Of a stretch of 16,410 bases of DNA, positions 1,794-7,084 are shown in pieces. The position numbers and the translations under genes are program-made. The stretch lies in IMG/VR virus record IMGVR_UViG_2778261139_000010. The stretch is one strand, 5' to 3'. Position 1 is the stretch's first letter. Each line of letters starts with the position of its first letter. Origin of the DNA: a virus (Duplodnaviria > Heunggongvirae > Uroviricota > Caudoviricetes). Below the pieces are notes generated by a model, which did not search any database, was not told the origin of the DNA, and was given only the letters and a program-made list of their open reading frames with translations.

Positions 1794-1973
1794 AAAGACT
1801 GGCGGCACACAGCCACCACCAATCCATTATTGACCGATACCGGGATCTCGGTATCGGGAATAAACGCCATAATACTGAGGTATAACCATGATGAAATATA
1901 CGCCCGTACAGGGGCGGGGATTCGTTCGCCCTGGTGAATCTGAAAAGCCATGCTATAGGGTATTTTCAGGCAT

Positions 1974-2007
1974 AAAAAAAGCGGTCCCGATATGGAACCG
2001 CCTTTCT
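1974..2007 (-). terminator. Intrinsic terminator for the minus-strand small-gene transcript
   Basis: Minus strand reads GCGGTTCC-atatc-GGGACCGC (one mismatch in stem) followed by TTTTTTT; lies about 65 nt downstream of the minus-strand ORF ending at 2070. Confidence 0.5.
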
Positions 2008-2069
2008 GAACAATTAACCCGCTGCGCCGTATGTGTCAACAATCATAAGCCCGAACATGATAACCGTGA

Positions 2070-2273
2070 TCAGGCTGGTGGGCAATTACCTTGCTTGTTG
2101 GGGCCGTATTGTGCTGCCATTTTCATCCGTTCAGAACGTGAATATTTTTTTAGAAACTCATCAAGGACAAAAGCGCATGGAGCGAATCTTTCTGATTCAT
2201 GCTCGAGCGCCATATTTTCGTGCTCTCTGTTCGTTTTTTGCGATGGTGTATTGGTTGATTCTTTATTGGTCAT
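2070..2273 (-). CDS. Hypothetical small protein downstream of RHH-1
   Basis: 67 aa; ATG ACC AA start exactly 57 nt after the RHH-1 stop, same arrangement as 2787..3014 after RHH-2. Weak SD. No recognisable family. Confidence 0.4.
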   Translation of the reverse strand: MTNKESTNTPSQKTNREHENMALEHESERFAPCAFVLDEFLKKYSRSERMKMAAQYGPNKQGNCPPA

Positions 2274-2281
2274 TGTGTGTA

Positions 2282-2364
2282 CCTGTAAAGCAATGCGCCG
2301 TAGTACCTCACGCCACGGCGCTGATAGTAATTATTCTGATTCTTTGGCCTTGCGGCGCTGGCGG
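2282..2364. repeat. Copy 1 of an 83-nt near-identical repeat spanning the RHH-1 3' end and the downstream intergenic hairpin
   Basis: 3 mismatches in 83 nt versus 3023..3105, while the rest of the two RHH genes has diverged. Confidence 0.85.
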
Positions 2365-2510
2365 CGTTTGATCTCGCCTTTTGCTGCCGTAACTAGAAAT
2401 CCGGCGGTACTTTCGCCAGGTTCTTTAAGTTGCTCAATATCGGTCATTACCTCATGCGGGATTCTGACCGTTGTCATTTGTGATTTTGCGTTCTTTGCAC
2501 CTGTTGCCAT
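2331..2510 (-). CDS. Ribbon-helix-helix-like DNA-binding protein (RHH-1), candidate repressor
   Basis: 59 aa MATGAKNAKSQMTTVRIPHEVMTDIEQLKEPGESTAGFLVTAAKGEIKRRQRRKAKESE. Strong SD AGGAG 8 nt upstream. Beta-strand (TVRIP), helix, G-E-S turn, helix pattern. Paralog of 3072..3251. Confidence 0.65.
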   Translation of the reverse strand: MATGAKNAKSQMTTVRIPHEVMTDIEQLKEPGESTAGFLVTAAKGEIKRRQRRKAKESE

Positions 2511-2530
2511 TTCTGGTTCTCCTGATAATC

Positions 2531-2623
2531 GGTGTATTTCAGTATACGCAAAAAAAAAGATAAAAAAAGTCTTGCGGTGTATTTCACCTGAATGTAGATT
2601 TAAAAATAAAGGTGAAATACACC
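2531..2623. promoter_or_regulatory. Module-1 operator cluster: GGTGTATTTCA (2531), GGTGTATTTCACC (2576) and its exact inverse GGTGAAATACACC (2611), bracketing a sigma70-like rightward promoter (TTGCGG 2572..2577, 17-bp spacer, TAGATT 2595..2600)
   Basis: Exact repeats and inverted repeats read from the sequence. Promoter assignment is by eye from hexamer match and spacing. Confidence 0.55.
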
Positions 2624-2786
2624 CAAAACAACAACGCCCCGCAGTGATGGGAACACATACGGGGCGTCTAACCAAACCATTAATTGAGGTAACGATTATG
2701 GCTATAAAAGAGCATAGCTTACTCTTTATACACACACAAACGCCCCGGAAACGGAATAATCCGTTTCATAGTTCGGTTTTGTGTAC

Positions 2787-3014
2787 TCATCCTGGCGGGC
2801 GATTCTTACGGGACTTTAGCCGCCGTGGGCAGCTTGCTAAAAATGCCTCCAACGCGAATAGTCCAGGTTTCATTTCTATCGGTATTAGTTGGATATTCAG
2901 AGGATTAGCCAGTTCGGCTTCAAGGCGAGCACAGGTTTCTAACTGCCTTTGCCGAATGATTTCATCTTCTTGCGTCTGCGTGTCTTGTATTGGTGATAGT
3001 GTGTTGTTGGTCAT
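2787..3014 (-). CDS. Hypothetical small protein downstream of RHH-2
   Basis: 75 aa; ATG ACC AA start 57 nt after the RHH-2 stop. Central region looks coiled-coil-like (EDEIIRQRQLETCARLEAELA). No recognisable family. Confidence 0.4.
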   Translation of the reverse strand: MTNNTLSPIQDTQTQEDEIIRQRQLETCARLEAELANPLNIQLIPIEMKPGLFALEAFLASCPRRLKSRKNRPPG

Positions 3015-3022
3015 GATACTGC

Positions 3023-3105
3023 CCTGTAAAGCAATGCGCCGTAGTACCTCACACCACGGCGCTGATAGTGATTATTCTGATTCTTTGGCCTTGCGACGCT
3101 GGCGG
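3023..3105. repeat. Copy 2 of the 83-nt near-identical repeat (RHH-2 3' end plus intergenic hairpin)
   Basis: See 2282..2364. Confidence 0.85.
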
Positions 3106-3251
3106 TATTCAACTTCCCGCTTTAATGCAGCTGTAACAAACTGCCCTGTACTTTCGCCGGGCATTTTTACCGCCTCAACATTGTTCATAACTTCATGTGG
3201 AACCCTTGCCGCAACTGTTTGTGATTTTGCGTTTACTGCTTTTGTCGCCAT
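3072..3251 (-). CDS. Ribbon-helix-helix-like DNA-binding protein (RHH-2), candidate repressor of the rightward early operon
   Basis: 59 aa MATKAVNAKSQTVAARVPHEVMNNVEAVKMPGESTGQFVTAALKREVEYRQRRKAKESE. Strong SD GAGGGGGG upstream. Below the 60-aa cutoff of the ORF track, found by reverse-complementing the repeat. Confidence 0.65.
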   Translation of the reverse strand: MATKAVNAKSQTVAARVPHEVMNNVEAVKMPGESTGQFVTAALKREVEYRQRRKAKESE

Positions 3252-3301
3252 GTTGAGCCCCCCTCATAAAAAACAAATGCAGTATGCAGGAAAAAAAATA
3301 A

Positions 3302-3354
3302 GTGTTCAACACTTGACGTGTTTAACACCTCGATTTAAATTGGTGTTCAACACC
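3302..3354. promoter_or_regulatory. Module-2 operator cluster: palindromes GTGTTCAACAC (3302), GTGTTTAACAC (3318), GGTGTTCAACACC (3342), overlapping a sigma70-like rightward promoter (TTGACG 3313..3318, 17-bp spacer, TAAATT 3336..3341)
   Basis: Three copies of a self-complementary 11-13 bp site positioned at -35, in the spacer and just after -10. Classical repressor/operator geometry. Confidence 0.6.
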
Positions 3355-3443
3355 TTATTTAGGCAAGGTGTAGAAACGACGAAACCCCGCACTGTAGGAG
3401 CAGTAACGGGGCTTCTAACCAACAACGTAAACGAGGAGCCGTT

Positions 3444-3641
3444 ATGGTTGCCGTAAATCATATACCACACCTTGTACACACACAAACTGCCTTTGTGTGG
3501 CGTTTTCTGGCCCTGAGTGCCGGAGAATCTCAAATCATCCACGTAACCGCCTGGACGGAACGCGAAGCGCGTAGCCGTTGCCCGTCCGGTTGTGTTGCTG
3601 TATTTGCCGCCCGTATTCGTCAGGAGGTGCGCCATGATTAA
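3444..3641 (+). CDS. Small protein resembling Icd-like (host cell-division inhibitor-like) proteins of P1/P4-type elements; first gene of the early operon
   Basis: 65 aa, SD GAGGA 6 nt upstream. FVWRFLAL...TEREAR...VFAAR pattern recalled from Icd-like annotations; family call is from memory. Confidence 0.45.
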   Translation: MVAVNHIPHLVHTQTAFVWRFLALSAGESQIIHVTAWTEREARSRCPSGCVAVFAARIRQEVRHD

Positions 3642-4529: not shown

Positions 4530-4829
4530 ATGAAACTTAAATATTCTGGCTTAACTGCCAGTGGCAACACTCACCCTAAATTTACGCGCGGTGATATTTA
4601 CCGCGACCAGTACGGCGGCACGGTAATGATTAAGGGCGTGGCGGGACGGTGCGTAACTTACCGCCGTGAAGGTTACGAATATGATTGCGTGATGCCTGTT
4701 TATCAGTTCCGGCGTGATTTTTCTCTGGTACAGACCGCGCCGCATAACGTGCCCACCAGCAGGGAGAAAGCACGCGCCAATATTCAGAAGATGAAAAACA
4801 TGATTAACGGATTCAGGGGCAAGAAATGA
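4530..4829 (+). CDS. Hypothetical protein (early operon, immediately upstream of rep)
   Basis: 99 aa; GGAGA SD; stop overlaps the rep start (ATGA). Confidence 0.55.
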   Translation: MKLKYSGLTASGNTHPKFTRGDIYRDQYGGTVMIKGVAGRCVTYRREGYEYDCVMPVYQFRRDFSLVQTAPHNVPTSREKARANIQKMKNMINGFRGKK

Positions 4830-6223
4830 AAAGCGCACCGAACTTAAAAAAACAGCCTTACGACAAGATGACCGAAGTCATCATTTTTGCGGGTAGTGAT
4901 GCGTGGGCACATGCGAAACAGTGGCAGGAACAGGACGGGCGACTGGCTGGCGATAATGTGCCTCCCATTGTGCTGGCTGATGATCAACTGGATGAACTGG
5001 CAGACCTGAGAATCATCGACGAGGGGCGCTATTGTGTCCGGCTGTACAAGGCAGGCCACATCAGGCCATCAAATATTAATGCCATTGCGCACAAGCTGGC
5101 GGCGGCGGGCGTAACTGATGCGAATTATTACCCCGAAGGGATACACAGCCAGAAGCGGGAGAACTGGCGCGAATATCTGGAACGGGAGCGGGGGAAAAAG
5201 CCAGGGGAAGAACACCACCAGCGAAAAACCACGCTACCGATGAGCGTTGGATCTGCCGGATACGACACGCAATTAGATTACGTGGTAAAGGGGATTATTC
5301 CGGCATCGTCGCTATGCAGCATATACGGGGCAAGCGGTTCCTATAAATCATTCCTTGCGGGTTCGTGGGCGTGTCACGTTTCCACGGGCCGCCAGTGGGG
5401 AGGCCGCAGGGTGGCGCATGGCGCTGTTCTCTATGTGGTTGGTGAAGGCGGTATCGGCGTTCCGCGTCGTGTAAAAGCCTGGGAAGTTGTGCACGGTGAG
5501 CAGGTAAAAAATCTGTATCTGGTAAACCGTCCGGTCTTTCCGGCGGTCCCGCTTGATGTTGATGAAATGGTTATCGCTGCCCGTCAGGTGGAGCGGGAAA
5601 CGGGTAAACCTGTACGCATGATTATTCTGGATACGCTGGCGCGTTGCTTTGGTGGGAATGATGAAAATGATTCCCGTGATATGGGGGCGTTTATCCGTGG
5701 TTGTGACGAACTGAAACGACGCACAGGGGCCACGGTGCTGGTGGTTCACCATTCCGGCAAGGATGAGACGAAAGGCGCGCGCGGTTCCAGTGCATTTCGT
5801 GCATCACTGGATGCTGAATACCGGATACGCAGGGAGGACGCAGGAAGCGAAGCGCTGGTTATCTCATGCACCAAAATGAAGGACGCGGAGGAACTCAAAG
5901 AAGCCGCATATGACTTACGCGTGGTGGAGCTGTTTACCGACGCTGACGGGGAGTTAATCACGTCGCTGGTGGTGGTGGATAAGCCGCGCCCTCCCGTTGA
6001 ACTGGAGCGCATCGAGGAGGCAGGCAACAAGACGGAAAACCATACCGCACTATGGGGGTGCATCCGTTCACGCACACAGAACGGCGACAAGTGCACGATC
6101 CCGCTGTTACGTGATGACATGAAACGGCTTGGGTATGACGTGAAAAATATGCGGCGATGGTTAGCCAAACTGGAAAAAGACGCCGTGATTTACATTGATG
6201 GTGATGATGTAGGACCACTGTAA
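4826..6223 (+). CDS. RepA-like AAA ATPase / replicative helicase-type replication initiator (satellite rep)
   Basis: 465 aa. Walker A-like GASGSYKS and Walker B-like MIILDTLA. Followed immediately by an iteron array. No obvious primase motifs seen by eye. Confidence 0.7.
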   Translation: MKSAPNLKKQPYDKMTEVIIFAGSDAWAHAKQWQEQDGRLAGDNVPPIVLADDQLDELADLRIIDEGRYCVRLYKAGHIRPSNINAIAHKLAAAGVTDANYYPEGIHSQKRENWREYLERERGKKPGEEHHQRKTTLPMSVGSAGYDTQLDYVVKGIIPASSLCSIYGASGSYKSFLAGSWACHVSTGRQWGGRRVAHGAVLYVVGEGGIGVPRRVKAWEVVHGEQVKNLYLVNRPVFPAVPLDVDEMVIAARQVERETGKPVRMIILDTLARCFGGNDENDSRDMGAFIRGCDELKRRTGATVLVVHHSGKDETKGARGSSAFRASLDAEYRIRREDAGSEALVISCTKMKDAEELKEAAYDLRVVELFTDADGELITSLVVVDKPRPPVELERIEEAGNKTENHTALWGCIRSRTQNGDKCTIPLLRDDMKRLGYDVKNMRRWLAKLEKDAVIYIDGDDVGPL

Positions 6224-6423
6224 AAAGTGAGTAGCAAAAGTGAGTAATGGTGAGGTTTTTACAAAATATTAACACGATTACTCACTTTCTCACCTGTATA
6301 CATGCTCAAAAGTGAGGAGTAAAAAAATCATTATGAAACATACACATAAAGCATCAAAAAATATCAAGTGAGACGAAGCGAGACGCTTTAAAAAGTGAGG
6401 TGTAAAAGTGAGCATGAGTGAGG
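6222..6423. repeat. Iteron array, candidate replication origin: at least 9 direct and 2 inverted copies of AAAAGTGAG(G) interspersed with AT-rich spacers
   Basis: GTGAG cores at 6227, 6240, 6251, 6313, 6368, 6396, 6408, 6419, plus inverted copies at 6281..6294. Location directly 3' of rep matches the usual PICI/SaPI origin position. Confidence 0.65.
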
Positions 6424-6677
6424 AGATAACCAAAATGCGCAGAGACAGAACAGGGCCGAAATATAAAGCGTTAGACATGACAGAGCACGCCTTAAAGGTG
6501 GCAATCAGGGTAATAGACCGCCACGCGGGGGAAGGATACGCGAAAGCACATCCCGAACTGATAAGCGCATTCATGACCACGACGGCGGCAAATTTTGCCA
6601 CGCTGACAGAGCGGGAGATTGCCGAAGCGGAACAGGTAACAACCATCAACGTTAAAACCGGAGAGGTGGAATTATGA
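6414..6677 (+). CDS. Hypothetical protein
   Basis: About 87 aa from ATG 6414 (GTG 6408 also possible); stop overlaps the ssb start. The start overlaps the last iterons. Confidence 0.5.
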   Translation: MSEEITKMRRDRTGPKYKALDMTEHALKVAIRVIDRHAGEGYAKAHPELISAFMTTTAANFATLTEREIAEAEQVTTINVKTGEVEL

Positions 6678-7084
6678 CGGCACAGATAGCCGCTTACGGG
6701 CGGCTGGTGGACGACCCGCTGGTAAAACAGAGCAGCAAGGGCACACCGATGACTCTGGCGCGTATGGCGGTATCGTTGCCATGCAGCCAGGCACATGACG
6801 GACAGGCGACGTTATGGTTATCGGTTATCGCATTTGGCAAACAGGCCGATTTCCTGGCTAAACATCAAAAAGGCGATGTTGCCAGCGTATCCGGCACGAT
6901 GCAGGTAAGCCAGTGGACCGGACAGAACGGGGAAACGCGGCGGGGGTATCAGGTTATTGCAGACAGCGTAATCAGTGCCCGCGCGGCACGTCCAGGCGGG
7001 AACAGACGCAAAACCACAGGCACACAGGGTAATCAGCCACCAGCGGGAGGCGATGACCCTTACGGTGACGGTATTCCGTTCTGA
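6674..7084 (+). CDS. ssb: Single-stranded DNA-binding protein
   Basis: 136 aa; OB-fold-like N-terminal region, Gly/Pro/Gln-rich linker, C-terminal acidic tip DPYGDGIPF resembling the SSB DDDIPF tail. Confidence 0.8.
   Translation: MTAQIAAYGRLVDDPLVKQSSKGTPMTLARMAVSLPCSQAHDGQATLWLSVIAFGKQADFLAKHQKGDVASVSGTMQVSQWTGQNGETRRGYQVIADSVISARAARPGGNRRKTTGTQGNQPPAGGDDPYGDGIPF

Follow-up and report, generated by a model that had tools for sequence, protein, structure and literature searches.

The replication origins of phage-inducible chromosomal islands (PICIs) lie directly 3' of rep and consist of two iteron sets that flank an A+T-rich region, and the rep-ori segment of one such island, EcCICFT073, maintains a plasmid, with deletion of either rep or ori impairing maintenance (PMC6092414). 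The Reps encoded by Staphylococcus aureus pathogenicity islands (SaPIs) act as self-loading helicases whose C-terminal winged helix recognizes 5-6-nt iterons, and SaPI origins carry 6-12 iterons directly downstream of rep, with an A+T-rich center and at least two iterons on each side of it that point in opposite directions (PMC9371898). The field would expect an iteron origin behind rep, so that its presence is no surprise. Here, we analyzed the virus record IMGVR_UViG_2778261139_000010 (Caudoviricetes), a stretch of 16,410 nt that we call the window, in which a repeat array at positions 6223-6425 directly follows rep, a gene for a helicase of the RepA family. Judged from its sequence, this array is very probably the vegetative replication origin of a PICI-type satellite. 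The sequence-only reading of this DNA had placed an iteron origin directly after rep, and that proposal was strongly supported by the position and layout of the array, by about 70 relatives and by covariation of Rep residue 441, and it also matched the published organization of PICI origins (PMC6092414, PMC9371898). What is new here is that the known PICI/SaPI origin design is attached to a RepA-type helicase-initiator without a primase domain, and what goes beyond expectation is a one-residue/one-base rule that ties Rep to its iterons, together with tandem double origins in some relatives.

The array begins within the rep stop codon (TAA, 6221-6223), whose final A doubles as base 1 of the first AAAAGTGAG. 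Exact direct copies of AAAAGTGAG were found at five positions (6223, 6236, 6308, 6391 and 6404). The shorter word AAGTGAG occurred six times in direct and once in inverted orientation, which amounts to seven of the eight copies of the whole window; the eighth stood alone at position 630, a second cluster being absent from the window, and a count of eight was reached in none of 200 dinucleotide-preserving shuffles. The 5-nt core GTGAG was present in eight direct copies (starting at 6227, 6240, 6250, 6312, 6368, 6395, 6408 and 6418), to which one degenerate core (GCGAG, 6378) and two inverted cores (CTCAC, 6281 and 6289) can be added. Thus, the nine direct and two inverted copies counted by the sequence-only reading hold for the 5-nt core, with one of them degenerate, and do not hold for the full 9-10-mer. 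The density that it had described was confirmed by these counts, by the shuffles and by the frequency of exact cores, which reached 10 per 210 nt at the array and at most 2 in the other non-overlapping 210-nt frames of the window. Its AT-rich spacing was found as well (78% A+T at 6317-6365). The iterons here were 9-11 bp long.

We found that the array is ordered, with a definite layout, rather than a plain run of repeats. A three-iteron block stands at either end (6218-6266 and 6386-6434), the two being 73% alike and 168 bp apart. On the plus strand, the left iteron block (6223-6256) consists of AAAAGTGAGTA, a second AAAAGTGAGTA and GGTGAGG, whose cores are spaced 13 and 10 nt apart, and its position and spacing were the same in relatives. 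It is followed by an inverted iteron on the minus strand (6279-6289; top strand TACTCACTTTC), which all lineages have kept 29-31 nt ahead of the direct iteron that follows, and by a central element without strand assignment, CTCACCTGTATACA (6289-6302). The latter contains the 9-bp sequence ACCTGTATA (6292-6300), which was invariant in nine E. coli/Salmonella origins irrespective of iteron class, and its YGTATATA-like core recurred in most other lineages; it may serve for the nucleation of melting or for the binding of a host factor. The second inverted copy, CTCAC at 6289-6293, sits in a conserved TTTCxCACCTGTATA that is independent of iteron class, and only the first of the two inverted copies was conserved in relatives as an iteron. 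Across the central element, the inverted iteron faces and pairs with a single direct iteron on the plus strand, AAAAGTGAGGA (6308-6318). Next comes the A+T-rich spacer (6317-6365), 49 bp with an A-rich top strand, which is the proposed unwinding region; the 50-nt interval from 6320 ranks as the second-poorest in G+C in the whole window. Finally, the right iteron block (6366-6425, plus strand) comprises AAGTGAGAC, the degenerate AAGCGAGAC, AAAAAGTGAGGTG, AAAAGTGAGCA and GAGTGAGGAG. Six cores lie to the left and five to the right of the spacer, and the right-hand iterons are all direct, so that the arrangement is asymmetric about it. As single-stranded DNA, the left half (6227-6293) was predicted to form a long hairpin of -17 kcal/mol in which iterons 1 and 2 pair with the inverted copies (folding z of -4.9 and -3.7 for the two strands, compared with -0.7 for the right half); no function is claimed for this hairpin, because it follows automatically from the inverted iterons.

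Other known signals were scarce around the array. A scan of 6150-6450 that allowed up to two mismatches in the DnaA box revealed no DnaA box, integration host factor (IHF) consensus or GATC, save one DnaA-like site with two mismatches inside rep. Promoter and terminator scans of 5900-6800 gave one signal each, both on the minus strand and not more than in shuffles, and a promoter or rep terminator inside the array was dropped as a candidate because these signals showed no above-chance excess. An Rfam scan of 6000-6700 with E-values up to 1 gave no match, so that the region is not accounted for by any known RNA. Taken together, the lack of all these signals points to an origin that lies inside the rightward operon and is apparently self-contained, and the lack of DnaA boxes, IHF consensus and GATC fits a self-contained initiator.

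We then compared the array across Rep relatives. Scanning one genome per species yielded 80 loci, which came from Citrobacter, Xenorhabdus, Pantoea, Kluyvera, Kosakonia, Enterobacter, Pectobacterium, Serratia, Morganella and others; seven Rep variants from E. coli and Salmonella were added by protein search. An array was considered classifiable if at least four copies of one short motif occurred in the 260 nt after the rep stop, and this was observed in 66 of the 80 usable loci (the window included), with the same layout throughout. First, two or three direct iterons are present, the first within 1-5 nt of the rep stop. Second, one inverted iteron lies about 45-60 nt in and is followed by a YGTATATA-like center. 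Third, a direct iteron stands 29-31 nt past the inverted one, and a spacer of 55-66 nt leads to three to five further direct iterons. Four core classes were distinguished: the window has GTGAG(GA), as do Salmonella, Xenorhabdus and some other E. coli; further E. coli have GTGGGGA, together with Pantoea, Kluyvera and Kosakonia; GTGGGGG is the core of Pectobacterium, Serratia and Morganella; and GTGCGGC was seen in Kosakonia cowanii, Enterobacter soli, Phytobacter and Citrobacter amalonaticus. In the alignment of the nine E. coli/Salmonella origins (A2), AAAAGTG.G was invariant, with A or G as the fourth core base depending on class, the spacers varied freely and the A+T-rich spacer was the least conserved part.

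Measured against the published PICI and SaPI origins (SaPIbov1, SaPI1 and EcCICFT073), the array in the window lies directly 3' of the initiator gene, as it does in the 66 relatives, and its short iterons form two sets around an A+T-rich center, with at least one inverted and both directions thus present. The similarity would extend to the protein, a helicase initiator with a predicted C-terminal winged helix, and DnaA boxes are lacking here as well. EcCICFT073 is the closest case, as it shares the att site and has an array in the same gene slot. Its gene order is DUF4222, rep, a 289-nt intergenic region, an 85-residue open reading frame (ORF), a single-stranded DNA-binding protein (SSB) gene and PerC, and the flanking proteins are clear homologs of those in the window. 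However, its initiator is a 584-residue protein of the D5_N/DUF5906/Pox_D5 type that has only the first ~122 residues in common with the Rep of the window, and its intergenic region contains eleven GGTAGA cores in both orientations, the iteron being GGTAGAYA in contrast with GTGAG here. Thus, the window differs in that its Rep core is a RecA-type AAA_25/RepA helicase (superfamily 4-like), whereas the SaPI Reps and the EcCICFT073 Pri-Rep are D5_N/DUF5906 proteins of the superfamily 3 type, and in that neither a primase domain nor a separate pri gene was recognized. It appears that initiator and iterons have been exchanged together as a cassette. In the literature, a full-text search for these iteron words together with 'iterons' gave no relevant paper, autonomous rep-ori replication for this Rep family was not found in the searched full text, and the papers on capsid-forming PICIs (cf-PICIs) do not discuss the origin.

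More distant systems share single features with the array. The elements of Xenorhabdus, Pectobacterium, Serratia and Morganella (L003-L070) encode primase-helicases that resemble T7 gp4, carry a C-terminal winged helix and are homologs of the window Rep over residues 130-465 (52-72% identity) and have an identical origin layout, and those of Xenorhabdus even share the GTGAGGA iteron and N441; they differ by Zn-ribbon and Toprim primase domains at the N-terminus, where the window Rep has an unrelated domain of 122 residues. Phage P4 is likewise an E. coli satellite in which a single protein, alpha, combines a helicase with C-terminal origin binding. Alpha recognizes short 8-bp repeats in both orientations (see also PMC6092414). 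However, P4 needs two separated sites, ori and crr, whereas one compact array without a second cluster was found here; alpha has a primase and a superfamily 3-type helicase, and the repeat sequence is unrelated, so that the array does not conform to ori/crr. Iteron plasmids (pPS10, RK2, F and R6K) also have a plasmid-encoded initiator acting on iterons beside an A+T-rich unwinding element, but their iterons are 17-22 bp long, host DnaB is recruited by initiators of the WH1-WH2 Rep_3 type, and DnaA boxes are usual, in contrast with iterons of 9-11 bp, a Rep that matched AAA_25 only and no DnaA box with one mismatch or fewer in 6150-6450. In IncQ plasmid RSF1010, the RepC initiator, RepA helicase and RepB' primase are separate, whereas initiator and helicase are one polypeptide here.

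The rep gene (4826-6223, plus strand) encodes a 465-residue RepA-family helicase-initiator. Pfam AAA_25, a RecA-type helicase family, matched residues 146-314 (E=7e-44) and no other Pfam family matched, phrog_2850 matched the protein along its full length, and domain searches gave neither a primase nor a D5-type domain. The Prokaryotic Genome Annotation Pipeline (PGAP) names the protein of a 98.8%-identical island 'helicase RepA family protein', and the nearest sequence in the PDB was the RepA of RSF1010 (1g8y), a weak match (E=0.005). Residues 1-122 (4826-5191 in the window) had no Pfam match and were 63% identical to the N-terminus of the otherwise unrelated D5-type Pri-Rep of EcCICFT073 (L090, 2242-2616). 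This 122-residue module was therefore seen on two helicase classes, always downstream of a DUF4222 gene, and it may be an interaction domain. At the other end, residues 404-465 (coding region 6035-6220, plus strand) were modeled by AlphaFold, within residues 319-465, as three helices and a beta hairpin (pLDDT ~90 for 404-465). Foldseek with this C-terminal model returned the winged helices of HrcA, IclR, MarR, DtxR, ArsR, ORC and MCM. A winged-helix fold is thus supported by the model, while homology to winged-helix proteins is unproven. In the model, residue 441 (N441; codon AAT, 6146-6148) lies directly before helix 3 (442-451), which is usually the recognition helix.

Overall Rep identity did not predict iteron class, since an 84%-identical Rep was accompanied by GTGGGGA iterons and a 66%-identical one by GTGAGGA. 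A column scan revealed that N441, in the motif K-N-M/F-R-R-W-L, was the only column that separated GTGAG from GTGGGGA origins in E. coli and Salmonella. In the 66 sequences, residue 441 and the fourth core base were fully associated: Asn with A (24 of 24), His with G (10 of 10), Lys with G (25 of 25) and Ser with C (7 of 7). A neighbor-joining tree built without column 441 required at least 7 changes of the residue and 8 of the iteron class, so that the association is not one inherited event. The closest comparison is between L084 and L085, whose Reps have three differences in the last 80 residues (A/P, N/H and Y/D) and whose aligned iteron cores carry nearly all A versus G, with one A-type core in L085. 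An island of E. coli O157:H7, fetched afterwards, obeyed the same rule. The pairings of Asn with adenine, His or Lys with guanine and Ser with cytosine agree with common protein-DNA contact preferences. We tentatively propose, with slightly less than even confidence, that N441 at the start of the recognition helix sets origin specificity through the fourth core base (Asn-A, His/Lys-G, Ser-C), that this specificity has been flipped repeatedly in E. coli satellites, and that it could give rise to orthogonal replicons and to tandem origins open to a neighbor's Rep.

Such tandem origins, with two cassettes behind a single rep, were observed in three relatives (L003, 4018-4450; L084, 2911-3310; and L086). 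In Xenorhabdus beddingii, two full cassettes of identical layout directly adjoin, the first with GTGAGGA and the second with GTGGGGA cores, and the two E. coli loci (L084 and L086) have a degenerate cassette in second place. Such an arrangement suggests replication by a second Rep of other specificity, supplied by a co-resident element.

The following order of events would be consistent with these features. After induction and excision, Rep would be made from the rightward operon, and iterons of 9-11 bp with the sequence A(3-4)GTGAG(G) would be read by its winged helix (404-465). N441 would contact the fourth core base, A, and Rep protection is expected to be centered on each AAAGTGAG. We infer this recognition from the covariation of residue 441 with core base 4. 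Rep would then gather on both end blocks and on the inverted and direct iterons that surround ACCTGTATA. Between these assemblies, the A+T-rich spacer of 49 bp would melt, and the RecA-type helicase core would load itself as a ring and unwind outward. From iteron binding to helicase loading, these steps follow the model put forward for SaPI Reps (PMC9371898). Host primase (DnaG) would presumably prime, because Rep has no primase domain, and the SSB of the island would coat the strands. The melting of the spacer, the self-loading and the source of priming are likewise inferred.

Several observations weigh against the reading of the array as an origin or against parts of it. First, 14 of the 80 relatives had fewer than four recognizable cores under the simple motif classes; some of these have a truncated or frameshifted rep and some probably represent further classes. 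Second, the spacer was not markedly A+T-rich in some lineages (Pantoea and Kluyvera). Third, a Rep without primase needs an extra factor. Fourth, the AlphaFold model was poor for residues 319-403, and the best Foldseek E-value to winged helices (0.048) was not significant, although the list of hits was consistent. Finally, the covariation is based on related sequences, and the number of switches comes from one neighbor-joining tree and could be inflated by recombination.

Four other explanations of the repeats were considered. The one that survives best, although improbable, is that they are operator sites at which Rep or a regulator acts as a roadblock or switch on the downstream operon (the small ORF, ssb, perC and the morphogenesis genes) rather than a place where replication starts. 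The array lies inside a unidirectional operon without above-chance promoter or terminator, so that a bound protein would meet RNA polymerase, and the array reaches with its last iterons into the start region of the following gene. However, the array travels with rep, and what follows it varies: ProQ-like genes in L084 and L086, hairpin DNA in L006 and L064, and other ORFs in L033. Moreover, two blocks around an A+T-rich spacer are the layout of the experimentally defined PICI and SaPI origins, and the syntenic array of EcCICFT073 behaves as ori. As a side effect of an origin, bound Rep may act as a roadblock to transcription.

The sequence-only reading had also described the final iterons as running into the start of the downstream gene and resembling a Shine-Dalgarno sequence, and from this it had suggested a possible coupling between origin occupancy and the translation of that gene. 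The gene in question (6414-6677, plus strand) is a small one that matched phrog_1231 (E=5e-51; residues 6-86 against profile positions 2-82). It has two candidate in-frame starts in the window, an ATG at 6414 inside the array, which corresponds to the PGAP start in the 98.8%-identical island, and an ATG at 6435, located 9 nt after the AGGAG (6421-6425) of the last iteron. Position 1 of the phrog_1231 profile corresponds to the codon at 6426, which is ATA in the window and has a 1-nt insertion just before it; the ATG of the family has thus changed to ATA in the lineage of the window, and the start has shifted. The public annotation of L083 appears to begin the small gene at this ATA. In five relatives (L082, L085, L087, L088 and L089), the family ATG abuts the last iteron and the penultimate iteron, with GAGGAG, GGGGAG or GAGAGG, lies 9-10 nt upstream. 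The observation of an overlapping, Shine-Dalgarno-like end of the array therefore holds, both for the window and for the E. coli and Salmonella relatives that share the gene. The coupling itself found no support, and we consider it slightly less probable even than the operator explanation. Rep is predicted to read the iterons as duplex DNA, whereas a ribosome-binding site acts in RNA, so that occupancy of one cannot mask the other. The GTGCGGC iterons (e.g., L033) are not purine-rich, and the next gene there starts further downstream with an AAGG of its own; elements with another downstream gene (L084, L086 and L006) lack the overlap; and the change from ATG to ATA with the shifted start in the lineage of the window argues against fine-tuned coupling. 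A simpler account of the likeness to a Shine-Dalgarno sequence is that it arises incidentally where iterons are rich in purines and genes are tightly packed. The most that bound Rep might do is to hinder transcription across the region.

Still less credible is that the repeats form a packaging site (pac or cos-binding repeats) for the small terminase of the island. Small terminases often bind arrays of short repeats, and the island encodes terS and terL (11987-13988), but the array lies 5.5 kb from terS, covaries with a Rep residue and is kept after rep where packaging modules differ or where none is nearby, as in the primase-helicase elements of Xenorhabdus and in the O157:H7 island, whose capsid gene is of the lambda type. 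The last alternative is that a purine-rich word clustered by chance in A+T-rich intergenic DNA. Nothing except the shortness of the core speaks for it, and it is refuted by the counts (0 of 200 shuffles; 10 cores per 210 nt versus at most 2 elsewhere) and by a layout conserved across genera.

With the array read as a replication origin, the gene content of the window indicates what kind of element carries it. Starting with the integrase, the genes are arranged as DUF4222, RepA helicase, SSB, capsid, protease, portal and terminase. The tyrosine integrase (1-1230) was identified by Pfam, as were the HK97-type capsid protein, the prohead protease and the portal. The DUF4222 gene (4530-4829, plus strand; Pfam DUF4222, E=2e-23) overlaps the start of rep (ATGA) and is the conserved left neighbor of the rep-ori cassette in H1, L082-L089 and EcCICFT073, and the SSB gene (6674-7084, plus strand; Pfam SSB, E=9e-16) belongs to the replication module. 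H1 is the 98.8%-identical island, located between roxA (ycfD) and phoQ in E. coli O22:H8; its annotation adds head-closure, connector, HNH, terS and terL genes, and tail genes are absent. The window ends in phoQ and has a 10-bp att core, GGACATATTT, at 14942-14951, overlapping the end of phoQ; this core and site are listed for EcCICFT073 (PMC6092414 supplement), and the same core is the one listed for EcCIRM12579. Thus, with a left integrase, a rightward operon, a replication module, capsid, portal, protease and terminase genes, no tail genes and a specific att site of the kind not used by prophages, the window is a phage satellite of the PICI type with a capsid gene of its own, as in capsid-forming PICIs (10.1101/2022.09.08.507074). 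When rep and the array together were searched by megablast against 50,697 phage records, nothing matched, and the element is thus not a catalogued phage.

At least three satellite types were observed at the roxA (ycfD)-phoQ att site: the capsid-encoding type of the window, the CFT073 type and an O157:H7 type with a lambda-like capsid gene. For the O157:H7 island at this site, the published cf-PICI was expected and a classical PICI with a lambda-type capsid gene was found instead, and the window was not equated with EcCIEDL933. Between its integrase/regulator end and the replication genes, the window has an ORF of 522 residues (1888-3456, plus strand) without a Pfam or PHROG match, which is missing from H1, where short genes of the YlcI/YnfO family are found; it is probably an accessory gene and possibly a defense gene.

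Among 5426 complete E. coli genomes, 658 had an alignable version of this array and 1682 had a rep-ori-like sequence, in up to eight places per genome, so that several related replicons often occur in one cell. The array would therefore be the origin of a very common E. coli satellite family, and the PICI origin design would have persisted through changes in the helicase class of its initiator. If the residue-441 rule is true, islands sharing a cell would have orthogonal replicons, relatives with tandem origins (L003, L084 and L086) could be replicated by the Rep of a neighbor, and the family would represent a natural, easily re-programmable set of orthogonal initiator/origin pairs. The rule thus offers a prediction, cheap to test, about how such satellites avoid or exploit cross-replication, and it could supply orthogonal replicons for engineering.

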